Below are positions 7,241-30,293 of a stretch of DNA of 64,000 nt, piece by piece. Both the position numbers and the translations under genes were made by a program. The notes under the pieces are model-generated. The model searched no databases. It saw only the letters and a program-made list of their open reading frames with translations, and had not been told where the DNA came from. Position 1 is the stretch's first letter, and every line of letters begins with the position of its first letter. This DNA comes from Candidatus Falkowbacteria bacterium (lineage in GTDB: Bacteria > Patescibacteriota > Patescibacteriia > UBA11705 > JACRDX01): positions 8,057-72,056 of the forward strand of contig JAZDOE010000018.1 in the NCBI GenBank assembly GCA_043798985.1, given 5' to 3'.

Positions 7241-7255
7241 GCATAAGATGGCAGT

Positions 7256-8203: not shown

Positions 8204-8206
8204 ATT

Positions 8207-9145
8207 ATGCCAAAACGAATTTTAGTGACAGGCGGCGCGGGATTTATTGGCTCGCATTTGTGTCGGCGATTGTTGGCAGACGGAAATTTTGTTTTATGTC
8301 TGGATAATTGTTTCACTGGCTCGCACGAGAACATTGTGGAATTGTTGGACAATAAAAATTTTGAGTTTATCCGTCATGATATTGTTGAGCCGATTCTGTT
8401 AGAAGTTGACCAAATTTATAATTTGGCGTGTCCTGCTTCGCCCATTCATTATCAATTTAATCCAGTGAAAACAATTAAAACAAATGTCATTGGCACGTTG
8501 AACATGCTTGGCTTGGCAAAACGCGTTAAGGCGCGAATTTTGCAAGCGTCAACTTCCGAGGTTTATGGCGATCCAGTGGAACATCCGCAAAAAGAAACTT
8601 ATTGTGGCAACGTAAATCCGATCGGCATTCGTTCGTGTTATGACGAGGGAAAGCGGTGCGCCGAAGCGTTAATGATGGATTATCACAGGCAAAATAAAGT
8701 TGATATTAGAATCATTAGAATTTTTAATACATATGGTCCGCGAATGCATCCGAATGATGGCCGTGTTGTTTCAAATTTTATTGTGCAAGCATTGAAGAAT
8801 GAGCCGATTACTTTAATGGGAGACGGAAATCAGACACGATCATTTCAGTACGTTGACGATCTGATTGAAGGAATGACGCGCATGATGAACAATGAAATTA
8901 ATTTTATTGGGCCCGTGAATATTGGAAATCCGGGTGAGTTTACAATAAAGCAATTTGCTGAAATGGTTTTGAAATTCATTCCGGAAAGCAAGAGCCAAAT
9001 TGTTTTTACGGAATTACCGCAAGATGATCCGAAAAAACGCAAACCAGACATTTCATTGGCAAAAGAAAAATTGGGTTGGGCGCCAACGGTGCCGTTGGAA
9101 ATTGGTTTGCAAAAGACAATTGAATATTTTCGTGGCATAATTTGA
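8207..9145 (+). CDS. UDP-glucuronate decarboxylase (UDP-xylose synthase-like SDR)
   Basis: [57 protein letters not shown]. Near-collinear with UXS/ArnA decarboxylase-domain proteins. Confidence 0.85.
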
Positions 9146-9171
9146 AATTTGTAATTTGGCATTTGTTATTT

Positions 9172-10497
9172 ATGAAAATTTCAATATTTGGCGTTGGCTA
9201 TGTTGGCTTGGTGAGTGGCGCGTGTTTTGCCGAGCTTGGCAATGAAGTTTTATGTTGTGATATTAATGCTGAAAAAATTTCTGATTTGAAAAACGGGATA
9301 ATTCCGATTTTTGAGCCAGGTTTAAAGGATATTGTTGATCGAAATGTAAAATCCAACCGTTTATTTTTTACAACAAAGGCAGAAGAAGCGGTTAAATTCG
9401 GAGACATTATATTTATTGCAGTTGGCACACCGCCAAAAGAACATGGCCAAGCAGATTTAAAATATGTTTATACGGTTGCCGAAACAATTGGCGAGTATTT
9501 GGATAAAGATCAAAAAATCATTGTTGATAAATCAACCGTTCCGGTTGGCACAGCAGAAGAAGTGCGGACGATTATTGGGAAAAAATTAAGTTGTCGGGGA
9601 CAAAGTTTTAACTTTGCGGTTGTTTCAAATCCAGAATTTTTAAAAGAAGGCGACGCGATAAATGATTTTATGAAACCCGATCGCGTTGTTGTTGGTTGCG
9701 ATAAGGATTGGGCAAAAAAAATAATGGAAGATTTATATTTGCCAGTGACAAAAAACGGCCATTCGATTTTTTTTATGGATTTGAAATCAGCCGAAATGAC
9801 AAAATATGCGGCAAATGCATTGCTGGCAACAAAAATTTCTTTCATGAATCAAATGGCAAATCTTTGCGAAATGACCGGCGCTGACATTGAACAAGTCAGA
9901 AAAGGAATTTGCGCTGATCGCAGAATCGGACCACATTTTTTATATCCCGGATGCGGTTATGGCGGAAGTTGTTTTCCGAAAGATGTGCAGGCGCTTGCCA
10001 GTTTGTCGAAAAAATTTGGCTATACTCCGCAGTTGTTAGATGCTGTTGAAAATATCAATGAAACGCAAAAAGAAATTTTAGCGAAAAAAATTGTCGCGGG
10101 ATTGGGCGATTTAATTAGTAAAAAAATCGCGGTTTGGGGCTTGGCATTTAAGCCACAGACAGATGATATGCGCGAAGCGCCGGCGATAATTACGATTGAA
10201 CGATTATTGGCAAAGGGCGCGCGCATAAGTGCTTATGATCCTGTTGCGATGAAAGAGGCGAAGAAAATTTTCCGCGACAGAATTGATTATGCGTTTGACA
10301 TGTATGATTGTTTGCGCGACGCGGACGCGTTGGTGGTGATTACCGAGTGGCCAGAATTTAAATTACCTGATTTCGCGAAAATAAAAAGTTTATTGCGCGC
10401 GCCGATAATTTTTGACGGCAGGAACATTTATTCGCCAGAAAAAATGAAAGAATTGGGATTTAAATATTTTTGTATCGGCCGGCCAGTTTTATGCTGA
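9172..10497 (+). CDS. ugd: UDP-glucose 6-dehydrogenase
   Basis: MKISIFGVGYVGLVSGACFAELG Rossmann motif. Catalytic GGSCFPKD. Motifs NPEFLKEG and WGLAFKPQTDDMREAP. Confidence 0.85.
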   Translation: MKISIFGVGYVGLVSGACFAELGNEVLCCDINAEKISDLKNGIIPIFEPGLKDIVDRNVKSNRLFFTTKAEEAVKFGDIIFIAVGTPPKEHGQADLKYVYTVAETIGEYLDKDQKIIVDKSTVPVGTAEEVRTIIGKKLSCRGQSFNFAVVSNPEFLKEGDAINDFMKPDRVVVGCDKDWAKKIMEDLYLPVTKNGHSIFFMDLKSAEMTKYAANALLATKISFMNQMANLCEMTGADIEQVRKGICADRRIGPHFLYPGCGYGGSCFPKDVQALASLSKKFGYTPQLLDAVENINETQKEILAKKIVAGLGDLISKKIAVWGLAFKPQTDDMREAPAIITIERLLAKGARISAYDPVAMKEAKKIFRDRIDYAFDMYDCLRDADALVVITEWPEFKLPDFAKIKSLLRAPIIFDGRNIYSPEKMKELGFKYFCIGRPVLC

Positions 10498-11465
10498 AAT
10501 ACAGTTTTATAATACCAGTAAAAGAGATAAACAATTATGTTCGGGAAGCGGTTCCGAAAATTCTTGAAATTGGCCGCGAGGATTTTGAAATAATTTTATA
10601 TGTTGATATTGCGAATTCGGAGACTTGGTTGAAAACGCGGCAAATCGCAACTGGCCCGGGCGGGCCGGCAATGAAGCGAAGTTTAGCGGCGCGCGACGCG
10701 CAAGGTGAGATTTTGGTTTTTATCGATGATGATGCATATCCTAAAAAAGATTTTTTGGAAAAACTTGACGAAGCGTTTAAAAATGAAAATGTCGTTGCCG
10801 TTGGCGGGCCGGCGATTACGCCGGCTAATAATAATTTTTGGCAAAAAGTTTCCGGCGCGGTTTTTTTAAGTAAACTGTCCGGCGGGTTCCCCGAAAGGTA
10901 CGCGCCGGTCGGCTCAAAAAAGTTTATTGATGATTGGCCGAGCGTGAATTTGTCGGTGCGTAAGGATGCGTTTGCAAAAGTCGGCGGTTTTAAAAGTTCT
11001 TTTTGGCCCGGAGAAGACACATTGTTCTGCGAAGAATTGGTAAAAGAAACCGGTAAAAATATTTTATATGATCCTGCGGTAATTGTTTTTCATCATCGTA
11101 GAGAAGGATTTTTCAGGCATTTGAAACAGGTCGGTGCGTACGGGCTGCATCGCGGTTTTTTCGCGAAAAAGTTCGGCGGCGCGTCGTTGAAATTAAAATA
11201 TTTTTTGCCGAGTTTGTTTTTACTGTTTATCGTCCTTGGCGCAGGATTAAGTTTCGTTTCTTTTTTGCTTTTTAAACTTTACATTGCCGGATGGGCGATT
11301 TATTTATTGGCATTATTGAAAGCATTGCTGGATATTAAACAGTATGAAGCAAGTTGGCTGGTCGCGTTGCATTCGTTGTATTACATCGTGGCAACACATA
11401 TAGTTTACGGATGGCATTTTTTGCGTGGTTTATTTAAAAAAGAATTAGTTAGCAAGTTGCGGTAA
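10491..11465 (+). CDS. Glycosyltransferase family 2 with C-terminal TM helices; contains a GC-rich palindromic in-frame segment
   Basis: FIIPVKEINNYVREA, FIDDDAYP, FWPGEDTLFCEE. 10653-10669 GGCCCGGGCGGGCCGGC encodes TGPGGPAM. Confidence 0.6.
   Translation: MLKYSFIIPVKEINNYVREAVPKILEIGREDFEIILYVDIANSETWLKTRQIATGPGGPAMKRSLAARDAQGEILVFIDDDAYPKKDFLEKLDEAFKNENVVAVGGPAITPANNNFWQKVSGAVFLSKLSGGFPERYAPVGSKKFIDDWPSVNLSVRKDAFAKVGGFKSSFWPGEDTLFCEELVKETGKNILYDPAVIVFHHRREGFFRHLKQVGAYGLHRGFFAKKFGGASLKLKYFLPSLFLLFIVLGAGLSFVSFLLFKLYIAGWAIYLLALLKALLDIKQYEASWLVALHSLYYIVATHIVYGWHFLRGLFKKELVSKLR
10653..10669. repeat. GC-rich palindrome GGCCCG-GG-CGGGCC inside the GT2 gene
   Basis: Shares CCGGGCGGGC with the 11.8 kb copy. 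It encodes GPGGPA. Confidence 0.55.
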
Positions 11466-11471
11466 ATATTT

Positions 11472-12959
11472 ATGAAGATTGCCATATCATTTCCACCATT
11501 AAAATCAGAAAAAGGCATTCCTTTGCTTTCGCAAAATCGGCAGTTCCAATGGTTCAATAGCCCCACTTATATTTATCCCATGATTCCGGCGAGTGCCGCA
11601 ACTTTGTTGAAAAAAAATGGACATGAGGTTATTTGGGACGATGGAATCGCTGAAAAAATGGAGTATGACAAATGGCTAGAGCGAATTGTTGAAACGCAGC
11701 CGGACATTATCGCGATTGAAACAAAAACTCCGGTTGTAAAAAAACATTGGCAGATTATTAATGATTTGAAAGCACAATCTTTGAAAATTGAAAACCCGCC
11801 TGCCGGGCGGGCAGGTTGGAAATTGAAAATTGTGCTGATGGGCGATCATGTGACAGCATTGCCAGAAGAGTCAATGAAAAATTGCGATGTTGATTTTGTG
11901 ATTCAGGCTGGGGATTTTGATTTTATTTTGTTAAGCATTGCGAATAAACTTTCAGGACAAGGCGAGTTGGAAGGTGGAATTTGGTATAAAGAAAATAGTG
12001 AAATAAAAAATAGCGGCGCGTATGATTTGCACAAACATTCGCTGGATGAATTGCCAATGATTGATCGCGAACTGACGCACTGGAAATTGTATGCGTTTGA
12101 AAATGGAAATTTTAAATATACACCTGGTTCATATATGATGAGTGGTCGTGATTGCTGGTGGGGAAAGTGCAGCTTTTGTTCTTGGACAACTTTGTTCCCC
12201 GGACAAAATTTTCGGACGCGTTCCGCGAAAAATGCGCTTGATGAAGTTGGCGCGCTGATTGGTTTGGGGGTAAAAGAAATTATGGAAGATTCCGGAACAT
12301 TACCGATAGGTGATTGGCTAAAAGAATTTTGCGAGGGGATGATTGCGCGTGGCTATAATAAAAAAGTGACGATGAGTTGCAACATGAGAATTAACGCAAT
12401 TAAAGATGTTGAAATTTGGAAAATGATGAAAGCTACGGGATTTAGACTTGTTTTGTTCGGTTTGGAATCAGCAAACCAATTGACATTGGATAGACTTAAT
12501 AAAAATTTAAAAGTTGAAGAAATTGAAAACGGGTTAAAAATTTGTAAACAAGCGGGCTTGGAGCCGCACATTACGGCAATGATGGGTTATCCGTGGGAAA
12601 CGCTGGCAGATGCGCAAAACACGGTCGTTTTGGCGAAGAATTTATTTAAAAAGGGTTATGTTGATACTTTGCAAGCAACGATTGTAATTCCTTATCCGGG
12701 AACGCCATTGCATAGATATTGTAACGAAAATAATTTGTTGAATTTTGAAGATTATGATCGGTTTGATCAACGGGAACAGGTTATGAAAAGCGCGCTAACA
12801 ACCGAAGATGTGCGTAAGTTAACTCAAAATTTGTACCGCGCGTGGATGAGCCCAAGTTTTATCGCGCGGAAAGTTTTTTCGATGAGAAATGTTGCTGATT
12901 TTAAATATTTATTTAAAGCCACGATGAAATTATTCGGGCATTTAATGGATTTTAAATAA
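11472..12959 (+). CDS. B12-binding-domain radical SAM protein (class B-like) with a non-canonical Cx4Cx2C cluster motif
   Basis: N-terminal B12-binding-like Rossmann region. The segment SGRDCWWGKCSFCSW. Downstream rSAM barrel motifs. In-frame GC palindrome at 11795-11815. Confidence 0.55.
   Translation: MKIAISFPPLKSEKGIPLLSQNRQFQWFNSPTYIYPMIPASAATLLKKNGHEVIWDDGIAEKMEYDKWLERIVETQPDIIAIETKTPVVKKHWQIINDLKAQSLKIENPPAGRAGWKLKIVLMGDHVTALPEESMKNCDVDFVIQAGDFDFILLSIANKLSGQGELEGGIWYKENSEIKNSGAYDLHKHSLDELPMIDRELTHWKLYAFENGNFKYTPGSYMMSGRDCWWGKCSFCSWTTLFPGQNFRTRSAKNALDEVGALIGLGVKEIMEDSGTLPIGDWLKEFCEGMIARGYNKKVTMSCNMRINAIKDVEIWKMMKATGFRLVLFGLESANQLTLDRLNKNLKVEEIENGLKICKQAGLEPHITAMMGYPWETLADAQNTVVLAKNLFKKGYVDTLQATIVIPYPGTPLHRYCNENNLLNFEDYDRFDQREQVMKSALTTEDVRKLTQNLYRAWMSPSFIARKVFSMRNVADFKYLFKATMKLFGHLMDFK
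11795..11815. repeat. GC-rich palindrome CCTGCC-GGGCG-GGCAGG inside the radical SAM gene
   Basis: Shares the 10-mer CCGGGCGGGC with 10656-10665. It encodes PAGRAGW. Confidence 0.6.
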
Positions 12960-12960
12960 T

Positions 12961-14586
12961 ATGGAATTGCCATTGGTTTCAATTATAATTACGACGAAAA
13001 ACGAAGAAAAAAATATTGAAAATTGTTTGGCGTCAATAAAAAGCCAGACATATCCGGTTGATAGAATAGAAGTTATTGTTGTTGACAATTCTTCGTCAGA
13101 CAAAACGAAGGAAATCGCGCTGAAATATACCGACAAGGTATTTAATAAAGGACCAGAACGAAGTGCGCAAAGAAATTTTGGAGTTGAAAAAAGCGCGGGC
13201 GAGTATTTTTTGTATTTGGACGCAGACATGATTTTGCAACCGGGAATCATTGATGAATGCGTTTCTTTAACGCAAAAGGACGTTGGCATAGTTGGTTTGT
13301 ATGTTCCGGAAATTGTAACGGGCGCAAAATTTTGGAGCGAGGTTCGCAGATTTGAGCGGAGTTTTTATCATAGTACGGTAATTGATTGCGTTCGATTTAT
13401 AAAACGTAAAACATTTATAGAGGTTGGCGGATTTGATGAGACAATGACTGGCCCGGAAGATTGGGATTTGGATAAAAAATTGCGACTACGTGGGCAGGTA
13501 GCATTAATTAAGACACATCTTTTTCATAACGAAGCAGAGTTTGATCTTAAAAAGTACTTGTCAAAAAAAGCGTATTATATAAAAAGCCTTGATAGGTATA
13601 GCGACAAATGGGGTAAAAATGATGCTGATGTTAAAAAGCAATTAGGAGTTTGCTATCGGTTGATAACCGTATTTACAGAAGACGGAAAATGGATTAAGCT
13701 GATTATGCATCCGGTGTTAACGTCGGGAATGTATTTGTTACGAGTTTTAGTGGGAATAAAATATTGCTGGGCGCTGTTGCAAAAAATTTTGTCCAACCAT
13801 GAAGAAATTCCCAAAAAACAAAAAAACATTGACGAGGAAAGGGAATGTAGAAAAACAGAGATTGTTTCTGTCGGGAAAGCGGAATTGGCTGGTTTTGATG
13901 AGTCCGCAGACTATTTATATAAATTTTTGATGGCAAATAATATTTTAAATTCACAGGAGCATAGTGGTCAATGCTTGGAATTAGGCTGTGGTTTTGGCGC
14001 GTTCACTTTTAAGTTGGCTAAATTGGGCTATAATATTTGCGGTACTGACGTTTCCGAAGAACAAATTGAGTTTAATAATAAAAGATGCGTAGAAAATAAT
14101 TTATCACCAATGTTTAAAGTGTTGAACATAACGACCTTGGATAAGATGGCGGGAGAAAGTGTTGATTATATTTTTCTAACGCAACTATTACATCATTTGG
14201 TTAAAATAGAGGACATTTTTGCGGAACTATTTAGAATTTTAAAACGAAACGGTAAGATTATTATTATAGAAGCCAATACGAGTAATTTTTTGCGCTTCAT
14301 CACCGCGGCTCTTATTAAAATTGATATAGATATATTCAAAAGACGACTTCGATTGGCGGCGCATTCCAACGAAGGATTCCATCTTATTCGAACATATAAA
14401 AAATGTATCAAACAACACGGAAATTTTTCTTTTTATCCATATTGCACGTCCAACAATTATTCTATTCCCAAATATAGGATATTTTCTAGATTGTTGTCTT
14501 TTTTTCATTTGTCGCCGAAATATTATGCTACGGATATTTGTTTAGTTGGGGCAAAAGAAAAGCCTGCGCCTTGTGTTCAAAAATAG
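12961..14586 (+). CDS. Bifunctional GT2 glycosyltransferase / class I SAM-dependent methyltransferase fusion
   Basis: N-terminus VSIIITTKNEEKNIENCLASIKSQTY...DADMIL is GT2. C-terminus CLELGCGFGAFTFKLAKLGYNICGTDVSEEQI is methyltransferase motif I. Confidence 0.65.
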   Translation: MELPLVSIIITTKNEEKNIENCLASIKSQTYPVDRIEVIVVDNSSSDKTKEIALKYTDKVFNKGPERSAQRNFGVEKSAGEYFLYLDADMILQPGIIDECVSLTQKDVGIVGLYVPEIVTGAKFWSEVRRFERSFYHSTVIDCVRFIKRKTFIEVGGFDETMTGPEDWDLDKKLRLRGQVALIKTHLFHNEAEFDLKKYLSKKAYYIKSLDRYSDKWGKNDADVKKQLGVCYRLITVFTEDGKWIKLIMHPVLTSGMYLLRVLVGIKYCWALLQKILSNHEEIPKKQKNIDEERECRKTEIVSVGKAELAGFDESADYLYKFLMANNILNSQEHSGQCLELGCGFGAFTFKLAKLGYNICGTDVSEEQIEFNNKRCVENNLSPMFKVLNITTLDKMAGESVDYIFLTQLLHHLVKIEDIFAELFRILKRNGKIIIIEANTSNFLRFITAALIKIDIDIFKRRLRLAAHSNEGFHLIRTYKKCIKQHGNFSFYPYCTSNNYSIPKYRIFSRLLSFFHLSPKYYATDICLVGAKEKPAPCVQK

Positions 14587-14648
14587 CTTTTATGGATGTG
14601 TTTGTGGCAAATGGGAAAGGACTAAGCTGACTACGCATCCGATAGGGA

Positions 14649-17600
14649 ATGCATTTTGTGAAAACTATGGAAAATAATCAAAGTGGAGACAAAAAAGTTG
14701 TTTATATTGGGATGAGTGCGGATCTTATACATCCGGGGCATCTTAATATTATAGAAGAAGGGCGAAAGCTCGGGGAGGTTGTAATTGGTCTTTTAACCGA
14801 CGCGGCGATTGCGAGTTATAAGAGATTGCCGTATATGTCTTACGAGCAAAGGAAAATCGTAATGGAAAATATAAAGGGCGTTGATCGAGTTGTTCCTCAG
14901 GCAACCTTGGATTACGTGGCGAATTTAAAAATGATCAAACCGGATTATGTTTTGCATGGTGATGATTGGAGAACCGGTGCGCAGCAAACAACGAGAACTC
15001 GGGTGATTGAAGCATTGAAAGAGTGGGGCGGAAAGCTTGTTGAAATTCCATATACTCCGGGAATTTCTTCGACTCAATTAAATAAAGCGCTCAAAGAAAT
15101 CGGCGTGACGCCAGACGTGAGAATGAAGAGATTAAAGCGGCTATTACAAGCAAAACAATTAGTTAGAATAATGGAGGCGCATAGCGGGTTGACAGGATTG
15201 ATTGTTGAAAATATTCACATTAGCAGAAATGGCGCAAATAAGGAATTTGATGGAATGTGGTTGAGTAGCTTGACAGAATCCACTTGCAAAGGAAAACCAG
15301 ACATTGAAGCTGTTGATATTACTTCGCGATTACAAACATTGAATACCATTGCCGAAGTCACGACTAAACCCATCATTTTTGATGGAGACACCGGCGGTCA
15401 GGTTGAACATTTTATTTATACGGTCAGAACATTAGAACGATTGGGCGTATCCGCGGTTATAATAGAAGATAAGACGGGATTAAAAAGAAATTCATTGCTG
15501 GGAACGGATGTTCAACAGTTTCAGGACAGTATTGAAGACTTTTCACAAAAGATTTCAGCCGGAAAACGCGCACAGATAACTCGTGATTTTATGATTATTG
15601 CTCGCATAGAGAGTTTAATTTTAAAGAAGGGCGTGGCTGACGCGATAAAAAGAGCAGATGTTTACATAAAGGCTGGGGCTGATGGGATAATGATTCACAG
15701 CAAGGAAAAAGATCCGCAGGAAATATTTGAGTTTTGCCGCGCGTACAAAAAGCTTGAGAGGGTCGTTCCTTTGGTGGTCATTCCAACTACATACAATCAA
15801 ATTACAGAGCAAGAGTTGATTGACCATGGGGTTAATGTTGTTATTTACGCGAATCATCTTTTGCGAAGCGCTTATCCGGCAATGGTAAAAGCAGCAACTT
15901 TGATTTTGGACAATGAACGGGCAATGGAAGCTGATGCGGTGTGTATGCCGATAAAAGAAATTTTGTCGCTTATTCCGTGCAGAGAGAATAATGTAAAAAT
16001 CGTTGATGGTATCAATGTGCCAGATTTTTGTAAATTTTTAAAAAACCTTGGAATAAATTTTTATTGTGGAGTTCCAGATTCCTTATTGAAAGATTTTTGT
16101 GCATATTTATTGGATAATCTGTCCGCGACCGAACATATTATTGCGGCAAATGAGGGCGGGGCGATCGGCTTGGCAACTGGGTATTATTTAGCTACGCAGA
16201 AACTTCCAGTTGTTTATATGCAGAATTCCGGTTTAGGTAATGCGACAAATCCGCTCGTTTCTTTGGTTGATCCAAAAATTTATTCAATCCCAATGTTACT
16301 TTTTATCGGTTGGCGCGGTGAGCCGAATAAAAAAGATGAACCTCAACATTTAAAACAGGGTGAAATAACCCTTGATTTATTAAAAGATATGGGCATTGCT
16401 TATGATATTTTGCCCAATTCATTTGATTCCGCGTGCAAGATTGTTGAGGATGCATATAAGAAAGCAAAACAAGAACAGCGTGCGCGGGCAATGATTGTTA
16501 AAGAGGGAACCTTTTTGTCGTATGTTCAAAAATCCTCGATAAAAAATGAGTATGAACTAAGTAGGGAAGATGCGATTGAAATTATTGCCGCGACGATTGA
16601 AGATACTGCGGCAATTATTTCTACCACTGGCAAATGTTCGCGAGAGCTTTTTGAATATAGAGAAAAAAACGGCGGTGATCATAAAAAAGATTTTCTTACC
16701 GTTGGCTCGATGGGGCATGCTTCGCAAATCGCGCTGGGCATCGCTCAAGAAAAAAGGGATAGGCAGATTTATTGTTTGGATGGAGATGGCGCGGCGATTA
16801 TGCATCTTGGGGCGATGGCGATTATTGGAAACAACGCGGTCGGCAATTTTAAACACATTATTTTAAATAATGGCGCGCATGAATCTGTCGGCGGACAGCC
16901 AACTGTTGGTTTTTCAATAGATTTTTGCGCGATCGCCAAAAATTGTGGTTATAAACAAGCAATATCGGCAAAAACCGAGCAAGAGTTGCGGGTAGCATTG
17001 GATTTTTTGAAAAACAATAACGGTCCTACGTTGCTGGAGGTGCGTGTTAAATGTGGTGCGCGGGCTGATTTGGGACGGCCGACAATCACGCCACAGCAAA
17101 ATAAAGAGGAATTTATAAAATATTTGCAAGAGGGCATTCCTCAACAGCAAGAAGAATTTTTTGGCATTGGGAAGCTGGCTGAAATTTTAAGAAAAAACGG
17201 GGCAAAAAAGATTTTTTTTGTTCATGGAAAAGAATCATATTCAATGAGCGGCGCTCAATATCTTATAGAACCGATTTTGAAAGATTTTGAAGCCACGCAT
17301 TTTTTTGAATTTGACTTAAATCCAAAAATTGAAGATGTGAAGCGGGGGGTAGCCGAGTTTTTGCGAGAAAAGCACGATATAGTTATCGGGTTGGGTGGCG
17401 GTAGTGCGATAGATATGGCAAAAGCGATTAGGGTTTTGGCGGCACAAGATCAACGAGTCGCGGCAGAAGAATTTGTTACGGGTGTTAAAAAAATAAATAA
17501 CCGTGGGGTACCGCTTGTTGTAATTCCTACCACAGCTGGAACAGGAAGCGAGGCAACTCATTTTGCTGTTGTGTATATTGAAAAAAACAAGAATTCGTTG

Positions 17601-18275
17601 AATAGCCCGTTTGTTTTGCCAGATTATTTCATTTTAGATCCTGTTCTTATTCGTCAATTACCAGCAAAAATTATGGCATCGAGCGGAATGGACGCATTGT
17701 GTCAAGCAATCGAATCATTTTGGTGCATTAACTCAACAAAAGAATCAAAAGAATATTCAAAGAAAGCGATTGAGTTAGCGATTGATAATTTAGAGGGGGC
17801 TTATGCCGGAGATATGAATGCGCGTGGGAAAATGCTTTTTGCCGCAAATTTAGCCGGTAAGGCGATAAACATTACGCAGACAACAGCCTGCCATGCCATA
17901 TCATATCCGATTACGAGCTATTTTGGCGTTGCGCATGGACACGCCGTAGCATTAACGCTCAGCGAAATGTTGAAATATAATTTTGAGATTTCAGAGAATG
18001 ATGTTTTGGATTCGCGCGGAGCAGGGTATGTAAAGGAAATGCTCAAAGAGTTACTGATAATTTTACGTGTTAATGACGTTGAATCGGGCGTTTATTTTCT
18101 TAAGGATTTAATGCAAAAATTGAACCTACCGACGCGGTTATCGGAGCTGAACATTAAGAGCGCGGAAGACATTGAGTTGATCATCAAAAATGGTTTTAAT
18201 CCAGATAGAGTAAAAAACAACCCGCGTGCATTGACAGAAGACAATTTAAGAAAAATTTTGCAAGTTATTTATTGA
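14649..18275 (+). CDS. Four-domain phosphonate biosynthesis fusion: cytidylyltransferase (TagD/Fom1-like), PEP phosphomutase, phosphonopyruvate decarboxylase, Fe-dependent alcohol dehydrogenase
   Basis: Domain 1 is an HxGH nucleotidyltransferase ([18 protein letters not shown]). Domain 2 is PEP mutase/ICL superfamily ([21 protein letters not shown] matching the EDKxxPKxNSL mutase motif). Domain 3 is a TPP enzyme ([29 protein letters not shown]). Domain 4 is an Fe-ADH ([24 protein letters not shown]). The 1208 codons are continuous. Confidence 0.75.
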
Positions 18276-18288
18276 AGATTAGGGTTAT

Positions 18289-19083
18289 ATGGAAAAAGAA
18301 GTTGTGCCCAAACAAACAGCAATGGCTTCAAGAAAGGACTATGATTTTACGGCGGTGCCGATGAGATTTTTTGCTTCTTTTTTTGCAAAATGGCTTGCTA
18401 CTCTTGGCGTAACTCCGAATCAGATAACATTATTCAATTTTTTAGTGCTTACCCCGGTCATTTCGTATTTTTTTATAAGAGGTGGGTATCTGGAAAATTT
18501 GATTGCTTTTGGGTTTATTTTTGTATATATGATATTTGATTTGTGCGATGGGATGGTTGCGCGATTAAGATCTTTACAGTCTGGATTCGGACAAACTCTT
18601 GATAGCAGTTTGGATAGAATTTTTCAAGGAGTATTGTTTATTTCAGTGATTTGTGGAGTTGTTTTGACCTCCGCAAACTGGCGGTGGGCTATTCCTGGAA
18701 TGTTGTTATTGTTTGGGCAAGGAATGGCGAACTGCATGGGCTTGGAATTTGAGAAACGGTTTGGGTTTGATGGATATTCCGGATTGCCCACTTTTAACGA
18801 AAAGTTTAAGTTGGGTGGCGTGGTTACTTTAGTAGATAAGTTTTTAAAGAATATCATTGTCCCGCATAATTTTTGGTATATTTTAATTTTTACGTGTAGG
18901 TACCAGTTTTTCCTCGGTATTTTATTTGATCAATTGGGGATATTTTTGATAGTTTTTGCGATAGCTATAAATATTAGATGGATCGTTTTATATCTTTTAC
19001 TAATGCGCTATTTGTATGGCGGAAAAAGTAAGTTACGAAGCCTTACGTTTTTAAAGGAGCTAGAATATGAAAAACGGAGTTAA
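18289..19083 (+). CDS. CDP-alcohol phosphatidyltransferase-family membrane transferase
   Basis: PNQITL plus DLCDGMVARLRSLQSGFGQTLDSSLDRI, which fits D-G-x2-A-R-x8-G-x3-D-x3-D. Polytopic membrane protein. Confidence 0.65.
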   Translation: MEKEVVPKQTAMASRKDYDFTAVPMRFFASFFAKWLATLGVTPNQITLFNFLVLTPVISYFFIRGGYLENLIAFGFIFVYMIFDLCDGMVARLRSLQSGFGQTLDSSLDRIFQGVLFISVICGVVLTSANWRWAIPGMLLLFGQGMANCMGLEFEKRFGFDGYSGLPTFNEKFKLGGVVTLVDKFLKNIIVPHNFWYILIFTCRYQFFLGILFDQLGIFLIVFAIAINIRWIVLYLLLMRYLYGGKSKLRSLTFLKELEYEKRS

Positions 19084-19121
19084 GCCGAGTATAATGTTAA
19101 TGATTAAAGGTTGAGTTTCAT

Positions 19122-21782
19122 ATGAAGATTGTTTTTGTCGTTGCGGGGGATGAAAATTTGGGGGTAGAATATTTAGCGGACTATTTGAAGAAAAATCATC
19201 ATCAAGTTGAGTTATTGTATGACCCGCAAATATTTGGAAAAGCGCACTTAAACATTTCTTTTTTAGGAAGATTGTTTGATTGGAAAAAATTAAATTTAAA
19301 AAAAATAAAAAGAGCCAGTCCTGATATAGTTGGTCTTTCTTGCGTCACGGCAACATATCAGTGGGCGAGAGATTTTGCAAAATTGGTAAAGACGGAATTG
19401 AGCATCCCGATCATTTTTGGTGGAGTTCATCCAACATTGGTTCCTGAGCTAGTTATAAAAGATGATTTTGTGGACATGGTTTGCGTGGGGGAAGGAGAAG
19501 AACCCCTTTTAGAGCTGCTGGATAGTTTGACGAACAATGCGCAGCGAACCGACATTAAAAGTCTTTGGTTTAAAAAAGGGGGGCAAATAATTAAGAATGA
19601 GGCGCGAGCATTGACAGAAAATATAGATAATTATTGCCTTGATAAAGAATTGTTTTTGGACATTTTGCCTAAGAATTTCAGAAAGGAGATAAATTATTTG
19701 ACGAGCAGGGGTTGCCCGTATAGGTGCACGTATTGTGGAAATGAACAAAAGGCTAAAATTTTTCAGGGTAGGGGAAAATATTTAAGACAAAAGAGCGTCC
19801 AGAGCGTGATCGCAGAACTTCAAAAGATAAAAAATGAGTACTCGTCCCAATACGTTGTTTTTGTTGATGATGTTTTAACGATGGATAGAGCTTGGTTTAG
19901 AGAGTTTAGCAAAATTTACGCAGAAAAAATAGGGTTGCCATTTACCTGTTTTGCACATTGTAAAATCATGGATGAGGAATTGATGATATTATTGCGTGAT
20001 GCTGGATGTAAGCTGATTGGATTTGGAGTGCAGTCAGGATCAGAGGAGACAAGGAGGAACGTGTTAAATAGGTATGAAACCAATGAGGAAATTTTGCAAG
20101 CGGCGGAGCTGTGCCGCAAGTATCAGATGCGGTTTATGGTCGATCACATTTTTGACATCCCATTTGATGATACAAACAATCTTGAATCTTTAAGGTTTTA
20201 TAATAAGGTGCGGCCGACAATGCTGAATGCGTTCAATCTGTTATATTTTCCTTGCGCAAAGATAATAGATTCCGGAATAAAGAGCGGAAAGATAACTGAC
20301 GCCGACGTCACCCTGATAAACGAGGGGCGATCAGTTGTCTACGAAACTGGAGCGGCGACTAGAAAAATAAAAGGAAATAAGAAAGACAATTATAGGAAAT
20401 ATGCGCTGCTTTATCAGCTGATGGTTTTATTTCCTCAACGATTTTTTGAAAAAATTTTGAAGCGGCAAAAAATAGTTGACCTCATTGGGATGTTTTCCCT
20501 TTCGTTCGTTTCAGTTGCCAGGATATTAGTCAATATAAAAGCTGGGCATGGATTTATTCCGCTTAGGATTATCAAAGATGAGATTTATTGGATGGTAAAA
20601 ACAGTCAAAGAAAGATCCTCTTGGCGTCCCAGAAAAGATGCGATGGATAAAATTTTAATTATATCGCCGTTTGTTTCTCCAAATGTTGGTGGGGCGGAGA
20701 CGCACATAGATGATTTAAGCGACTATTTAGCTCAAAAAAATTTTGATGTCCAAATTTTAACTTATCAACCATTAACGACGGACGCCAGTGGCGCATCTAA
20801 AGAAATGAGGGGCGCGCGGATAAAGATTAGAAGATATGCATGGTTTGGTCATAATATCTTCCATCGACTAGCGAATTTTCCGATTTTAAATTTTTTATAT
20901 ATAACTCCGTATTTGTTTGTTCGTTCTTTCTTTTTTATGTTAAGTAATAGCCGAAACTTCCGATTGATAAACGCTCACGGGCTTAATGCTGTATTTATCG
21001 CCGTTGTTTTAAAAATTTTTTTTAACAAAAAGATTGTCTTCAGCACAATGGCTCTTTATGATTTCAGGGACGGTTCGGTATTTAAAAAAATTACACAGCG
21101 TGTTTTGCGTAAGGTTGACCGGATTCTTGCACAGTCCGAAGAATCCAAAGCTGAATTTGTCTCCCTTGGTTTTCCCGTGGAAAAAATTGATGTTTTTGTT
21201 CACTGGGTGAATGTGAGTCGTTTTTATCCGATTGAGAAAAATGAAGCTAGATATCATTTAGGGTGGGAGAACAAGTTTACAGTAATTTTTGTCGGGAGAT
21301 TGATTTTTTTAAAAGGAGTGGATTTAGTTATTCGCGCTGCCGAGGCATTACAAGACATAACTTTTGTAATCGTTGGAGATGATGGCCCTCTTTTAGAGGA
21401 CGTTGCGCGCGCCTCAAAAAATATGAAAAATTTAAATTTTGTTGGCAAAGTAGAATACTCGGCATTGTCAAAATATTATAATGCGGCGGATATTTTTCTT
21501 TATCCGGCGAGGTATAAAGAGGATATGGCGCGTGCGATAAACGAATCGCTTGCCTGCGGAACGCCTGTTTTGGTGGCAAATATTGGCGCGGAGCCATATA
21601 CAATTGACTCCTCGGTCGCTCGGCTTATTGTGCCGGAGGTTGAAAGTATTGTCGCGACAATAAAAGCCTTGAAGCAAACTCCATCGTTGTTATTGGACAT
21701 GCAAAGAGCCGCTCCGAAGTTTATCAAAGAGCTGAATCAAAAGGTTGCTGATATAATCATTGAGGGCTATAATAAAGCATGA
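19122..21782 (+). CDS. Fusion protein: N-terminal B12-binding radical SAM (class B, Fom3-like architecture) and C-terminal GT1 (GT4) glycosyltransferase
   Basis: The B12-binding-like N-terminus is followed by TSRGCPYRCTYCGN (canonical CxxxCxxC). The C-terminal half ILIISPFVSPNVGGAETH...ESLACGTPVLVAN is a GT4 fold. Confidence 0.7.
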   Translation: MKIVFVVAGDENLGVEYLADYLKKNHHQVELLYDPQIFGKAHLNISFLGRLFDWKKLNLKKIKRASPDIVGLSCVTATYQWARDFAKLVKTELSIPIIFGGVHPTLVPELVIKDDFVDMVCVGEGEEPLLELLDSLTNNAQRTDIKSLWFKKGGQIIKNEARALTENIDNYCLDKELFLDILPKNFRKEINYLTSRGCPYRCTYCGNEQKAKIFQGRGKYLRQKSVQSVIAELQKIKNEYSSQYVVFVDDVLTMDRAWFREFSKIYAEKIGLPFTCFAHCKIMDEELMILLRDAGCKLIGFGVQSGSEETRRNVLNRYETNEEILQAAELCRKYQMRFMVDHIFDIPFDDTNNLESLRFYNKVRPTMLNAFNLLYFPCAKIIDSGIKSGKITDADVTLINEGRSVVYETGAATRKIKGNKKDNYRKYALLYQLMVLFPQRFFEKILKRQKIVDLIGMFSLSFVSVARILVNIKAGHGFIPLRIIKDEIYWMVKTVKERSSWRPRKDAMDKILIISPFVSPNVGGAETHIDDLSDYLAQKNFDVQILTYQPLTTDASGASKEMRGARIKIRRYAWFGHNIFHRLANFPILNFLYITPYLFVRSFFFMLSNSRNFRLINAHGLNAVFIAVVLKIFFNKKIVFSTMALYDFRDGSVFKKITQRVLRKVDRILAQSEESKAEFVSLGFPVEKIDVFVHWVNVSRFYPIEKNEARYHLGWENKFTVIFVGRLIFLKGVDLVIRAAEALQDITFVIVGDDGPLLEDVARASKNMKNLNFVGKVEYSALSKYYNAADIFLYPARYKEDMARAINESLACGTPVLVANIGAEPYTIDSSVARLIVPEVESIVATIKALKQTPSLLLDMQRAAPKFIKELNQKVADIIIEGYNKA

Positions 21783-21785
21783 TAT

Positions 21786-22772
21786 ATGCAAGAATTTTAT
21801 AAAGGAAAGAATGTATTAATTACTGGCGGGGTGGGTTTTATTGGCAGTAGTATCGCAAAAAAGTTAGTCGAATTTGGTGCCAATGTTTTTATTATGGATT
21901 CGATGTGCCCGGATTACGGCGGCAATCTTTTTAATATTGAATCTATAAAGTCGTCTGTCAATGTTAATATTTCAGATATGCGCGATCCGTATAGTACAGA
22001 ATATTTGGTGAAAGGTAAAGATGTAATTTTCAATTTAGCGGGGCAGGTCAGTCATATTGATAGCATGAAAAATCCTTTTCAGGATTTAGAAATAAATTGT
22101 ACCGCGCAACTTTCTTTGCTGGAACTTTGCAGGAAGGTTAATCCCGCCGTGAAAATTGTTTTTGCATCAACCCGCCAGATTTATGGGAGAGCTGAATATT
22201 TGCCCTTAGACGAGAAGCACATTGTTAATCCAATAGATGTCAATGGGATAAATAAAGCAGCCGGAGAGCGCTACCATACTTTATACAATAATATTTATGG
22301 AATAAAAGCGTGTGCGTTACGACTAACGAATACTTATGGTCCTCGGCAATTAATCAAACATAATAAGCAGGGATTCATTGCGTGGTTTATTAATAGGTTG
22401 GTAACGAATAATAAAATAGCCATTTTCGGTGATGGAATGCAGACTCGAGATTTTAATTATATCGACGATGTTGTGAATGCGTTTCTCGTGGCTGGGAAAA
22501 ACTCGGTAGCTGATGGCGAAGTATTTAACTTGGGGGGCACTGAGCCAGTAACCTTAAAGGCCCTAACAGAACAAATGATTGAGATAAACGGTGCGGGAGA
22601 ATATGAGTTGGTGCCCTTTCCAGATGAAAAAAAGCAGATTGATCTTGGTAGTTGCAGTTGCAGTTTCGACAAAATAAAAAATGTTTTGGGGTGGGTTCCA
22701 GTGGTTTCTTTAAGGGATGGTCTTATTGCGACACTCAATTACTATAAGGAGCACAAGGCGCATTATTTATAA
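21786..22772 (+). CDS. NAD-dependent sugar epimerase/dehydratase (extended SDR)
   Basis: VLITGGVGFIGSSIAKKL glycine-rich motif. YxxxK context. The length is typical of NDP-sugar epimerases. Confidence 0.75.
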   Translation: MQEFYKGKNVLITGGVGFIGSSIAKKLVEFGANVFIMDSMCPDYGGNLFNIESIKSSVNVNISDMRDPYSTEYLVKGKDVIFNLAGQVSHIDSMKNPFQDLEINCTAQLSLLELCRKVNPAVKIVFASTRQIYGRAEYLPLDEKHIVNPIDVNGINKAAGERYHTLYNNIYGIKACALRLTNTYGPRQLIKHNKQGFIAWFINRLVTNNKIAIFGDGMQTRDFNYIDDVVNAFLVAGKNSVADGEVFNLGGTEPVTLKALTEQMIEINGAGEYELVPFPDEKKQIDLGSCSCSFDKIKNVLGWVPVVSLRDGLIATLNYYKEHKAHYL

Positions 22773-22781
22773 ATATTTTTT

Positions 22782-23876
22782 ATGATTCCATTTTTTGAGT
22801 TAAAGCGACAATATGCGCTGATTAAAAATGCTATACACGAGGAACTGAATGGGATTTTTGAGCGCGGCGTTTATATTTTGGGCGATGAAAATAAAAAATT
22901 TGAACAAGAATTCGCTGATTATTGTGGAGTTGGTTATGCGATAGGTTGTAATTCTGGGACCGATGCTTTGAAATTGGCGATGCTATCGCTAAATATTGGA
23001 GCAGGAGACGAAGTTATAACAGTCTCGCATACAGCAGTTCCAACTGTTTCCTCAATTTATGAGGTTGGAGCCACGCCGGTTTTTGTTGATATAGAAAAAG
23101 ATGGTTTTCTGATGGATGTGAATAAGATTGAAAAAGCTATCACCGCAAAGACAAAAGCGATCATTCCTGTTTCTTTATACGGTGAAGCATGCGATATCCA
23201 GAAAATAAACGAGATAGCTGCAAAATATAACCTATCAGTGATTGAGGATGCGTGCCAAGCGCATGGAGCTATAAGCGCCGGAGTGAAAATTGGTGCCAGA
23301 GCGTTATTAACAGCTTTTAGTTTTTATCCAACGAAGAATTTAGGCGCTTATGGTGATGCTGGTATGGTTACAACCAACAACAAAGAGTTGGCGGGCAAGC
23401 TAGTCAATCTCAGGTTCTATGGAGTGGCAAATAAGGAAAAATATGAGCATACGTTGAGGGGGATCAATTCTAGATTAGATGAAGTACAAGCCGCCATTTT
23501 ACGGATTAAATTAAAATTTTTGGATAGTTGGAATAAACGACGTAGAGAAATTGCGGATTTTTATTTTAAAAATATAAAAAATTCGAATATCGTTTTGCCC
23601 AAAACAAGAGAAGCGGGAGGGCATGTTTTTCATTTATTCGTTATTAGATTTGTAGATAGGGATCGCTTGAAAAAGTATTTGCTTGATAACGGTGTTATTG
23701 CTTTAGTTCATTACCTTTTGCCAGCTCATAAGCAGCCAGTTTTTGCTGGCTTGCAACGAGAGGCATTGCCAGAAACAGAAAAAATTAGCAAGGAAATATT
23801 GTCTTTGCCGGTTTTTCCTGAATTGAAGCAAGAAGAGTTGGAAAAGATTGTTTTTTTGCTTAATAATTTTAAATAA
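22782..23876 (+). CDS. DegT/DnrJ/EryC1/StrS-family PLP-dependent sugar aminotransferase (ArnB-like)
   Basis: FELKRQYALIKNAIHEELNGIFERGVYILGDE, GCNSGTDAL, SFYPTKNLGAYGDAG. Confidence 0.8.
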   Translation: MIPFFELKRQYALIKNAIHEELNGIFERGVYILGDENKKFEQEFADYCGVGYAIGCNSGTDALKLAMLSLNIGAGDEVITVSHTAVPTVSSIYEVGATPVFVDIEKDGFLMDVNKIEKAITAKTKAIIPVSLYGEACDIQKINEIAAKYNLSVIEDACQAHGAISAGVKIGARALLTAFSFYPTKNLGAYGDAGMVTTNNKELAGKLVNLRFYGVANKEKYEHTLRGINSRLDEVQAAILRIKLKFLDSWNKRRREIADFYFKNIKNSNIVLPKTREAGGHVFHLFVIRFVDRDRLKKYLLDNGVIALVHYLLPAHKQPVFAGLQREALPETEKISKEILSLPVFPELKQEELEKIVFLLNNFK

Positions 23877-23888
23877 TGGTCTATTTTT

Positions 23889-24611: not shown

Positions 24612-24632
24612 ACGTGGGACAAAAAATAAGAT

Positions 24633-27384: not shown

Positions 27385-27871
27385 TCAACAATCGATAATT
27401 GAAAAATTCATGTATTTTATTTTGGACGTTGATGGTGTGTTTACGACGGGACAATTTTTGTACACAGCCGATGGAAAATTTGCTAAAGTGTTTGGCCCAC
27501 ATGATAGTGATGGCATAAAATTGGTTTCCGAATTCTTGAAAGTTCAGGTGATTAGCGCTGACAAACGTGGCTGGCTGATTACAAAAAAACGTATTGCTGA
27601 TGATATGGGGCTGCAATTAGATAATGTCGTTGAGGCAGAACGGATAGATTGGTTCCGCAAAAATTTTGATCTTTCAAAAACCATTTACATGGGAGACGGG
27701 ATTTATGATGCCAAAGTTTTTGAATTGGTGGCATATAGCATTGCGCCGGCCGACGCGTTTTATATTGCACGGGAAAAAGCAAGCTTTGTTACAAAATGTA
27801 AAGCAGGAGAAGGCGCTGTCGCCGAAGCGTGTTTGCATATTTTGGAAAAATTTTTTAATCAAAAAATATGA
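27371..27871 (+). CDS. KdsC-like HAD-superfamily sugar-phosphate phosphatase
   Basis: FILDVDGVFTTG (DxD nucleophile) plus YMGDGIYDAKVFELVAYSIAPADA (GDxxxD). The length matches the KdsC/YrbI family. Confidence 0.7.
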   Translation: MQKNNQQSIIEKFMYFILDVDGVFTTGQFLYTADGKFAKVFGPHDSDGIKLVSEFLKVQVISADKRGWLITKKRIADDMGLQLDNVVEAERIDWFRKNFDLSKTIYMGDGIYDAKVFELVAYSIAPADAFYIAREKASFVTKCKAGEGAVAEACLHILEKFFNQKI

Positions 27872-30287: not shown

Positions 30288-30293
30288 TAATTT

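Follow-up and report, generated by a model that had tools for sequence, protein, structure and literature searches.

The window, meaning the whole 64,000-nucleotide stretch of Candidatus Falkowbacteria DNA analysed here, carries on its forward strand a co-directional island of glycan-synthesis genes. The island encodes GT2, GT4 and GT1 glycosyltransferases, epimerases, a UDP-Glc dehydrogenase, DegT, methyltransferases and an NTP transferase, and its borders are marked by Mur ligase/ZIP and QueA/MetRS. The ORF under study lies inside this island, in the setting that the original prediction had described. The features are as follows:

5939..39151, forward strand: co-directional glycan-synthesis island holding the ORF, by Pfam/NCBIfam gene content
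11472..12959, forward strand: second B12-binding radical SAM (rSAM) protein, by Pfam and NCBIfam, equivalog level not reached
14649..18275, forward strand: whole ORF, with cytidylyltransferase (CyTase or CyT), PEP mutase (Ppm), phosphonopyruvate decarboxylase (Ppd) and Fe-type alcohol dehydrogenase (Fe-ADH), by ORF continuity and domain order in Pfam and NCBIfam
14688..15101, forward strand: Fom1-type CyTase domain, aa 14-151, predicted to convert 2-hydroxyethylphosphonate (HEP) and CTP to CMP-HEP, by match to PDB 5x3d
15126..15986, forward strand: PEP mutase domain, aa 160-446, predicted to convert PEP to phosphonopyruvate, by TIGR02320 and alignment with 1m1b
15987..16019, forward strand: junction 1 (Ppm-Ppd), aa 447-457, a joint of 7-10 residues, placed by gene ends and starts of relatives
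16008..17135, forward strand: Ppd domain, aa 454-829, predicted to convert phosphonopyruvate to phosphonoacetaldehyde and CO2, by TIGR03297 and motifs
17136..17141, forward strand: junction 2 (Ppd-ADH), aa 830-831, practically without linker, placed by gene ends and starts of relatives
17142..18272, forward strand: group III (Fe-type) alcohol dehydrogenase domain, aa 832-1208, predicted to convert phosphonoacetaldehyde to HEP, by Pfam Fe-ADH and ADH_Fe_C
18289..19083, forward strand: CDP-alcohol phosphotransferase-family membrane protein, candidate CMP-HEP phosphonyl transferase, by PF01066, 14 nt downstream of the ORF
19122..21782, forward strand: fusion of a B12-binding rSAM protein and a GT4 glycosyltransferase, 886 aa, by Pfam; island partner with a putative role in the phosphonate branch

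The ORF begins with ATG and encodes 1,208 aa with no interruption. Pfam places CTP_transf_like at aa 23-144, PEP_mutase at 162-419, TPP_enzyme_N at 461-573, TPP_enzyme_C at 677-798, Fe-ADH at 841-998 and ADH_Fe_C at 1010-1206, all above the gathering score. This is the order in which the original prediction had expected a Pfam search to recover them, and its reading of one unbroken ORF carrying a cytidylyltransferase, a PEP mutase, a TPP-dependent decarboxylase and an Fe-ADH is supported. The catalytic motifs are intact, apart from one putative metal-site position of the ADH (below). In the structure model of the whole protein, the CyTase, Ppm and Ppd domains are predicted with high confidence, which drops at the two joints only. 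In codon usage and GC3, the ORF's three segments fall inside the spread of values found for the remaining genes of the window. A chimeric assembly between organisms was ruled out on this basis and by the domain order, which is that of the cassette in the 80 related loci described below. An alternative genetic code was also ruled out, since the window genes terminate at TAA, TGA and TAG.

The first domain was classified as a Fom1-type HEP cytidylyltransferase (PF01467) by HxGH, (R/Y)TxGISxT and close similarity to the solved Fom1 CyTase, all of which are present. It matches the Fom1 CyTase domain (PDB 5x3d) with 220.8 bits and an E value of 7.8e-65, with 94/138 residues identical (68%), and the two share the motifs HPGH (aa 28-31) and PGISST (aa 137-142), in agreement with the TagD/Fom1 type first assigned to it. 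The Fom1 CyTase domain makes HEP-CMP (PMC9088020; PMC6697681). The identity of the window CyTase has a median of 68% to 52 CyTases from ADH-type cassettes, against 57% to 12 from aminotransferase-type ones, and the 64-kb window contains no AEP transaminase homologue. The domain itself is joined to an ADH and not to a transaminase. On this indirect evidence, a preference of the domain for HEP over AEP or other phosphonates is putative.

The second domain reaches 407.7 bits with the PEP mutase model TIGR02320, above the equivalog cut-off of 319.55 and over model positions 1-282 of 284 (NCBIfam). Its segments PDIEAV, DGDTG, EDK..K.NS, ARIES and IHSK line up with segments of the Mytilus PEP mutase 1m1b, which presumably hold the active-site residues of that enzyme (about D58, D85/D87, E114, K120, R159 and H190). 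The motif EDKxxxxxNS, noted from the start as the mutase motif EDK..NSL, is intact at aa 273-282; the phosphonopyruvate hydrolase 2dua has ...KDTS at this place in the alignment. This motif separates Ppm from other members of the superfamily (Rice et al. 2019, PMC6697681).

The third domain matches the Ppd model TIGR03297 over its full length (model positions 1-360 of 360), with 492.5 bits against an equivalog cut-off of 312.5 (NCBIfam). The motifs used for Ppd were GDG-x(24-27)-NN and a Glu conserved in the PYR domain; the protein has GDG712-x25-NN740/741 and, at aa 500-503, ANEG. The TPP fingerprint claimed earlier is present, but it had been read with the wrong NN, the nearer 'GNN', instead of the canonical pair at 740/741.

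The C-terminal domain scores 135.1 and 118.4 bits with PF00465 and PF25137, respectively, and carries the dinucleotide motif GGGS at aa 916-919. Its best NCBIfam family is the phosphonate-associated Phn_Fe-ADH/PsrA TIGR03405, with 179.3 bits; as this is below the cut-off of 423.7, we classify the domain no further than group III Fe-ADH. The putative metal-site motifs are DALCQ (1015-1019), CHAIS (1081-1085) and AHGH (1095-1098), in which the Asp and two His motifs are kept and the first His is replaced by Gln (DALCQ). Most homologues carry His at this position; Gln is also found in the solved structure of a methanol dehydrogenase, 6jko (DVLSQ). Confidence of the structure model is low in this domain because the alignment held only four ADH-bearing sequences. 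A catabolic reading, with oxidation of HEP, was ruled out, as the ADH is joined to the biosynthetic Ppm and Ppd.

Taken together, the four domains would form the early HEP pathway. The Ppm domain would isomerise PEP to phosphonopyruvate, and the TPP-dependent Ppd domain would decarboxylate it irreversibly to phosphonoacetaldehyde, which would pull the unfavourable equilibrium of the mutase. The Fe-type ADH domain would then reduce phosphonoacetaldehyde to HEP, and the N-terminal Fom1-type CyTase would join HEP and CTP into CMP-HEP. The analysis shows which domains and motifs the protein has, that it is colinear with the separate genes of relatives and that the fusion is rare; we infer from sequence each catalytic activity, the specificity for HEP, the synthesis of the full-length fusion and the fate of CMP-HEP. 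We consider it likely that a single polypeptide, derived from end-to-end fusion of a cassette, runs this pathway and that its CMP-HEP feeds the island.

This cassette is widespread. CyTase-Ppm, Ppd and Fe-ADH occur as three separate genes in about 55-58 of 80 related genome loci, with products of about 438, 385 and 386 aa in the same order as in the ORF. The hosts range from Bacteroidota to CPR, DPANN and Asgard archaea, and include Bacteroidales, Ignavibacteria and Bacillota (MAGs). By domain, the window protein is at best ~73-77% identical to the cassette in CyT and Ppm, 58% in Ppd and 51% in ADH, and the alignment presents it as an almost linker-free, colinear concatenation of the three products. 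The relatives keep stop and start codons between their genes, whereas the window ORF has no stops between domains. The ORF would have originated by end-to-end fusion of the cassette genes.

Several partial fusions were found among the relatives: CyT-Ppm-Ppd with a separate ADH (P0002, locus L081), CyT-Ppm followed by Ppd-ADH (P0121, locus L082; also locus L030), CyT-Ppm-ADH (P0009) and CyT-FeADH (P0131). Their joints are colinear with those of the window protein, but none of them has both. P0130 (CyT-Ppm-Ppd-aminotransferase(V), 1,174 aa) shares the first three domains, with 39% identity over query aa 15-827, and differs in the last one, an AEP transaminase, so that its predicted product is CMP-AEP and that of the window protein CMP-HEP. 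Searches of 1.84 billion representatives and 5.8 billion clusters returned no second protein with the CyT-Ppm-Ppd-ADH architecture. The original description of the four-step fusion as unusual is fair for its architecture; the cassette itself is common, as a rule in the form of three neighbouring genes. The pathway chemistry and the cassette were known before, as was the fact that Ppm tends to be fused to partners; the complete four-domain fusion is the sole new element, and it is one of architecture only.

Comparison with the separate genes places both joints of the protein. At junction 1, the relatives' CyT-Ppm stops ~3 aa past aa 443, and the Met of their Ppd falls near aa 454 in the alignment; pLDDT in the structure model drops at aa 445-452. 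The joint includes a run of five A (15995-15999), an out-of-frame TGA (16004-16006) and a GTG (16017). At junction 2, the corresponding positions are about aa 828 for the end of the relatives' Ppd and about aa 832 for the Met of their ADH; here, independent Ppd-ADH fusions (P0121 and others; L030; L082) are colinear across the joint. The public NCBI annotation covers only the C-terminal 752 aa (aa 457-1208; P0001, which starts at V457). The mutase half, CyT-Ppm, has no protein in the public record, and the full-length 1,208-aa product is absent from a collection of 15 billion proteins. Proteins encoded next to the ORF are identical to NCBI entries deposited as Candidatus Falkowbacteria, all from one contig, and this match takes the place of a direct comparison with the public DNA. 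Since public annotation is limited to the decarboxylase-ADH part, surveys of PEP mutase in annotated proteins would miss this organism.

One more A in the run at 15995-15999 would bring a stop back in frame ('...NNVKNR*'), 10 nt before the GTG that NCBI uses as start. Junction 1 might consequently be a sequencing or assembly artefact of a true A6, with two genes in place of one: a CyTase-Ppm of 452 aa (...NNVKNR, TGA 16004-16006) and a Ppd-ADH of 752 aa (from GTG 16017), the arrangement of loci L082 and L030. In favour of this, the single added base yields exactly the two-gene layout, spacer and start included, and searches returned no other four-domain protein of this type. Moreover, the NCBI protein accessions ending in 988, 989, 990 and 992 (within MFH0814988-MFH0814992) leave the CyT-Ppm product without a number, and the pgk gene on the same contig is frameshifted by an apparent one-base contraction of an A run (now A4, 54063-54066) in an otherwise canonical sequence. 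However, a scan for frameshifts that a homopolymer indel would repair returned mainly ordinary gene boundaries, with pgk as the only convincing broken gene across the 64 kb, and homopolymers in the window show a normal distribution of lengths, with runs up to 9. By a rough target-size estimate, in-frame fusion of two genes by a random indel should be several hundred times rarer than disruption of a gene. Natural Ppm-Ppd joints of equal length also occur (P0002/L081 and others), and a genuine one-base deletion would leave an identical relic pattern. An artefact is in our judgement unlikely; it would leave the pathway and its product unchanged and remove the four-domain fusion alone. We hold the fusion to be very probably real, though its junction 1 hangs on a single base in the A5 run. 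The Ppm-Ppd joint looks young, since deletion of one base from this run would have been enough to abolish the stop.

A continuous ORF might also be translated as two functional proteins, if initiation took place additionally or mainly at the internal GTG at 16017 and Ppd-ADH were made separately. This codon lies within ~3 residues of the relatives' Ppd Met and is the start chosen by NCBI. No obvious Shine-Dalgarno motifs precede the genes of the island, so that the sequence would permit internal initiation. Against this, the internal start has no promoter or RBS support, and ribosomes that begin at 14649 meet no stop before 16017 and would make the fusion anyway. We find this arrangement quite improbable and retain the single polypeptide.

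The ORF is followed by a gene for a membrane protein of the CDP-alcohol phosphotransferase family, with an E value of 1.5e-16 and 61.6 bits to PF01066 (gathering 22). Its motif D-x2-D-G-x2-A-R-x8-G-x3-D-x3-D is intact (DLCDGMVARLRSLQSGFGQTLDSSLD), and it reached no NCBIfam equivalog. Only 6 homologues occur in 5.8 billion clusters. One of these, 52% identical, shares its island, L083, with an unfused HEP cassette, while more distant PF01066 proteins occupy the equivalent slot in CPR glycan islands without the cassette; in two of these (L087 and L089) B12-rSAM, DegT and PF01066 occur together, with no Ppm, Ppd or ADH. A role of PF01066 as general partner of the cassette was ruled out, as the motif was found in 1/82 loci. 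The usual neighbour of the cassette in relatives is a TagF-like CDP-glycerol glycerophosphotransferase (24+6 loci), whereas that of the window ORF is the PF01066 protein. This adjacent protein is the best candidate for the transfer of the phosphonyl group from CMP-HEP.

Two B12-binding rSAM proteins flank the cassette. In the downstream one, of 886 aa, the rSAM and GT4 halves meet seamlessly at M508 (nt 20643); each resembles a protein of L083, the former a separate rSAM (51% identity) and the latter a GT4 (41%). The B12-rSAM Fom3 acts on cytidylyl-HEP (PMC9088020), and a Fom3-like C-methylation by one of the flanking B12-rSAMs would turn CMP-HEP into CMP-2-hydroxypropylphosphonate. Fusions of rSAM with CyT-Ppm exist (P0038), to whose rSAM the window rSAM half is 28% identical (E 2e-32), and the cassette is flanked by B12-rSAMs in CPR and DPANN loci. 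On the other hand, the close homologues of this rSAM that were examined (45-52% identity; L087, L088 and L089) come from CPR glycan islands without phosphonate genes, where Ppm, Ppd and ADH are all missing over 10 kb. The fusion to GT4 suggests a sugar-directed role, and all phosphonate-specific rSAM families remained below cut-off, with comparisons to NCBIfam and PDB returning generic class-B rSAM matches only. A Fom3-like role for these proteins is thus weakened. That the activated product is anything other than plain CMP-HEP, by such a methylation or by the use of a different phosphonate by the CyTase, is highly improbable.

The four activities predicted for the ORF are those of Fom1, Fom2 and FomC of Streptomyces (and of PhpC-type HEP formation), and in both Fom1 and the window protein the CyTase is fused N-terminally to Ppm (PMC9088020, PMC6697681, PMC8942020). 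In Streptomyces, however, they are distributed among three proteins of an antibiotic pathway, together with Fom3, FomD and Fom4, whereas here one polypeptide combines them, encoded in the glycan island of a member of the CPR. No equivalents of FomD or Fom4 (HppE) were seen in the window. A second parallel is offered by PntC/LicC-type pathways and the HEP phosphonoglycans of Stackebrandtia and Glycomyces, in which a phosphonate is activated by a cytidylyl group for decoration of the cell surface; HEP is a known substituent of polysaccharides (PMC6697681; PMC8942020). These systems differ in using PntC of PF12804 and/or separate genes, and come from cultured Actinobacteria, Bacteroides and Treponema. 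PMC6697681 and PMC8942020 describe no CPR case and no PF01066 transferase.

In the Falkowbacteria island, CMP-HEP would most likely provide a phosphonyl head group for a lipid or lipid-linked glycan that the island genes produce, and we infer, as the original prediction did, phosphonate decoration of a glycoconjugate or lipid. A more specific scenario is tentative: these bacteria may have a phosphonate-decorated envelope, with a 135-kDa 'PEP-to-CMP-HEP synthase' that channels its intermediates and a PF01066 protein recruited as phosphonyl transferase owing to insertion of the HEP cassette into a CPR glycan module that otherwise works with phosphate. If true, C-P surface chemistry would be assigned to the Candidate Phyla Radiation for the first time, and a new class of phosphonyl transferase would be defined. 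The fusion, if real, would be the most compact known genetic route to an activated phosphonate, with one gene from PEP to CMP-HEP. Engineers of phosphonate production or of phosphonoglycans would have in it a convenient tool made of a single part, and it would offer a naturally occurring system in which to test whether channelled substrates get past the unfavourable equilibrium of PEP mutase. The predicted phosphonate decoration of surfaces would extend to the ultra-small CPR and, through the unfused cassettes, to DPANN and Asgard archaea.

The ORF at 14649–18275 (+) is open throughout and encodes a protein of 1,208 aa, as the original prediction had stated, and the four domains named in it were recovered by Pfam in the same order, all above the gathering score:

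aa 23–144, CTP_transf_like
aa 162–419, PEP_mutase
aa 461–573, TPP_enzyme_N
aa 677–798, TPP_enzyme_C
aa 841–998, Fe-ADH
aa 1010–1206, ADH_Fe_C

Two parts also exceeded NCBIfam equivalog cut-offs: phosphonopyruvate decarboxylase (Ppd), with 492.5 bits (cut-off 312.5) and the full model covered, and PEP mutase (Ppm), with 407.7 bits (cut-off 319.55). The top NCBIfam model for the alcohol dehydrogenase (ADH) part is the phosphonate-associated Fe-ADH PsrA, with 179.3 bits, far below its cut-off of 423.7.

The cytidylyltransferase (CyTase) part, aa 14–151, aligned with the crystal domain of Streptomyces Fom1 (PDB 5x3d) with an E-value of 7.8e-65 and 94 of 138 residues identical; HPGH and PGISST lie inside the aligned region. 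The conversion of 2-hydroxyethylphosphonate (HEP) and CTP to HEP-CMP has been demonstrated for the Fom1 CyTase domain (PMC9088020; PMC6697681). The catalytic motifs of the first three domains stood up to alignment. In relation to Mytilus PEP mutase 1m1b, the Ppm part retains the conserved segments, including IHSK. The motif EDKxxxxxNS, the marker used to separate true Ppm from other isocitrate-lyase relatives (PMC6697681), is altered at NS in phosphonopyruvate hydrolase. The predicted TPP fingerprint is present as GDG712-x25-NN740/741, while the nearer 'GNN' quoted for it was the wrong NN. The ADH part has GGGS. At the putative metal positions, the Asp and two of the His motifs are kept, and the first His is replaced by Gln (DALCQ). 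Since the solved methanol dehydrogenase 6jko has Gln at the same place, this replacement need not mean an inactive enzyme.

The AlphaFold model (aa 9–1208, 42-row alignment) supported the first three domains, with pLDDT of 85–97 and dips only at the two joints, aa 445–452 and 832–840; the ADH part was poorly modelled and is uninformative, because only four alignment rows contained it.

The CyTase family is common to the HEP and AEP branches. The identity of the window CyTase is 68% both with Fom1 and with the median of the ADH-type cassettes (52 loci), against 57% with aminotransferase-type cassettes (12 loci). This closeness, the fused ADH and the lack of an AEP transaminase in the window favour HEP over AEP as the probable substrate, and the reading of the ORF as a CMP-HEP module holds with its activities as predictions.

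Among genomes sampled at one per GTDB species, 80 loci matched residues ~16–1205 colinearly within ~3.5 kb. Where all three parts are present, the ORF structure is in almost every case three tightly packed genes, which encode CyTase-Ppm (~435–450 aa), Ppd (~375–390 aa) and Fe-ADH (~380 aa) and are often parted by a single stop in the same frame. The loci come from Bacteroidales, Ignavibacteria, Bacillota, Portnoybacteria, Woesearchaeota, Aenigmatarchaeota and a Promethearchaeum, and a Ppd-ADH fusion (787 aa) occurs among the scanned loci only in Saccharibacteria L030. In pairwise alignments the CyTase-Ppm of the relatives ends ~3 residues past aa 443 of the window protein, their Ppd corresponds to about aa 454–828, and the Met of their ADH falls close to aa 832; therefore 438, 385 and 386 residues are joined with almost no linkers. 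Judged from these gene ends, the four-domain ORF appears to be a fusion of the common cassette. In the Asgard archaeon locus L001 (Promethearchaeum sp. MAG), the three-gene HEP cassette lies at 9702–13322.

The fusion was predicted to be unusual, and it is the only complete CyTase-Ppm-Ppd-ADH single-chain module found, in a CPR bacterium. Neither an exhaustive phmmer search against 1.84 billion cluster representatives nor a word-indexed search of 5.8 billion clusters found a protein with all four domains. In the former, the top matches were Ppd-ADH proteins (P0121 and about ten other clusters, 35–49% identity). Partial combinations in the word-indexed search were CyTase-Ppm-Ppd (P0002, 60% identity, and others), CyTase-Ppm-ADH (P0009), Ppm-Ppd, CyTase-Ppm-NTP_transferase and radical SAM (rSAM)-CyTase-Ppm. 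Pfam analysis of selected matches added the CyTase-FeADH proteins P0131 and P0205, and P0130 (1,174 aa), an AEP-pathway counterpart of the all-in-one module which ends in an aminotransferase(V) domain instead of the ADH. P0139 (1,058 aa) is Ppm-Ppd-aminotransferase; both proteins, from the representative library, are single-chain (CMP-)AEP modules, with architectures absent from the published fusion inventories (PMC6697681; PMC8942020). Intermediate states were also observed. L081, which is the nearest relative when all domains are considered (63/64/57/51% identity), has a CyTase-Ppm-Ppd gene and, 2 nt behind it, an ADH gene of its own; in L082, a gene ending in Ppm overlaps a Ppd-ADH gene. 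These inventories record Ppm on its own, in combination with PF12804 and/or PF01467 and, rarely, fused to a TPP domain, with no ADH fusion (PMC6697681; PMC8942020). Only the architecture is new: the enzymology and the cassette are established, and Ppm is already recognised as prone to fusion with partner enzymes.

The best database match is MFH0814990.1, 'MAG: phosphonopyruvate decarboxylase [Candidatus Falkowbacteria bacterium]', of 752 aa and 100% identical. It starts at GTG 16017, with V457 taken as the initiator Met, and its contig is 72,153 bp long. A collection of 15 billion proteins did not contain the 1,208-aa product in full length. The neighbouring genes are annotated as follows:

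11472–12959, MFH0814988
12961–14586, MFH0814989, a fusion of GT2 glycosyltransferase and class I SAM methyltransferase (541 aa), directly upstream of the four-domain ORF
19122–21782, MFH0814992, a seamless fusion of B12-radical SAM protein (~507 aa) and GT4 glycosyltransferase (from M508, nt 20643), 886 aa

With this numbering, no protein accession remains for the CyTase-mutase half (14649–16016). The PEP mutase of this genome is thus without a protein product in the public record, and protein-based phosphonate surveys would overlook the genome.

The Ppd-ADH joint (aa 830–831) is regarded as sound, since it is colinear with independent fusion proteins. The Ppm-Ppd joint (aa 447–457) hangs on a single base. 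It contains an A5 run at 15995–15999, and with one added A the mutase would end at TGA 16004–16006, with the GTG chosen by NCBI 10 nt later, as in the usual two-gene arrangement of L082 and L030. An A lost through error would make the joint an artefact and the ORF two genes. Such a contraction, whether error or real mutation, does occur in the same contig: pgk (phosphoglycerate kinase), which adjoins the enolase and iPGM genes, is split into overlapping ORFs at 53682–54116 and 54059–54865, covering Pfam PGK positions 5–121 and 120–379. When an A is added to the A4 run of 'TGGAAAATG' (about 54057–54075), the frames rejoin into what we take to be a canonical PGK sequence. The split reflects either an indel of the assembly or a genuine frameshift in this core gene of glycolysis. 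However, no other gene in the 64 kb is convincingly broken, A/T runs reach 9 with normal decay, and by a rough target-size estimate random indels would break a gene several hundred times more readily than fuse two in frame. Ppm-Ppd joints of equal length are also found in natural proteins, and composition is uniform along the ORF. An artefact is therefore considered improbable; the relics at the joint would be exactly those expected from a real, recent one-base deletion.

The ORF lies inside a co-directional glycan island of ~33 kb (about 5939–39151), bordered by housekeeping genes, which encodes GT2, GT4 and GT1 glycosyltransferases, epimerases, a UDP-glucose dehydrogenase, a DegT aminotransferase, several methyltransferases and two B12-radical SAM proteins. 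The rSAM and GT4 parts joined in MFH0814992.1, which NCBI annotates at its full 886 aa, are separate genes in L083, L087 and L088. Five ORFs in or beside the island had no Pfam match at E ≤ 1e-4: 4385–5623 (412 aa), 5939–7240 (433 aa), 32961–35576 (871 aa), 36706–38406 (566 aa) and 38399–39151 (250 aa). The rSAM proteins might act on CMP-HEP as Fom3 does, and in P0038, an rSAM-CyTase-Ppm fusion, the rSAM part shares 28% identity with that of the window; this proposal is weakened by close rSAM homologues in cassette-free contexts.

No TagF-like gene was found in the window. A PF01066 CDP-alcohol phosphotransferase (264 aa), with an intact catalytic motif, lies 14 nt downstream of the four-domain ORF. 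CMP-HEP is a CDP-alcohol analogue, so phosphonyl transfer by this enzyme is chemically reasonable, and in our preferred reading it would move the phosphonyl group onto a lipid or glycan hydroxyl. Only six homologues were found in 5.8 billion clusters. One (about 52% identical) is in L083, an island with an unfused CyTase-Ppm, Ppd and ADH cassette, GT4, DegT, methyltransferase and a B12-rSAM 51% identical to that of the window; another adjoins a stand-alone PF01467 cytidylyltransferase (L086). The link between PF01066 and phosphonate is not exclusive: the CPR islands L087 and L089 have the same rSAM-DegT-(PF01066)-methyltransferase module but lack Ppm, Ppd and ADH within 10 kb, and the motif occurs in only 1 of 82 loci. 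Apart from that of the window, the ORF with it is at position 4099 of L001, ~5.6 kb upstream of the cassette.

These distributions are most simply read as an optional insertion of the HEP cassette into a conserved CPR glycan module. This module, with genes for GT4, two B12-rSAM, DegT, methyltransferase, PF01066 transferase, UDP-Glc dehydrogenase and epimerases, is present without the cassette in L087 (1–17930) and L089 (1–21148), and with it in L083 (551–14097) and the window. In other lineages the usual cassette neighbour is a TagF-like CDP-glycerol glycerophosphotransferase (24 + 6 of 82 loci). These PF04464 proteins, which in Bacteroidota and other lineages adjoin the cassette most often (e.g. 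L042, 11598–12854; L023, 7359–8576, − strand), are good candidates for CMP-HEP transferases. A membrane protein of ~1,000 aa adjoins the cassette in 15 loci (e.g. L046, 14860–18243); it begins with a YidC/60KD_IMP domain, and its long C-terminal part is unassigned. At the edge of the Ppm-less CPR glycan island of L087, a phosphonate-binding periplasmic protein (PF12974) and an ABC ATPase are encoded at 19926–21527.
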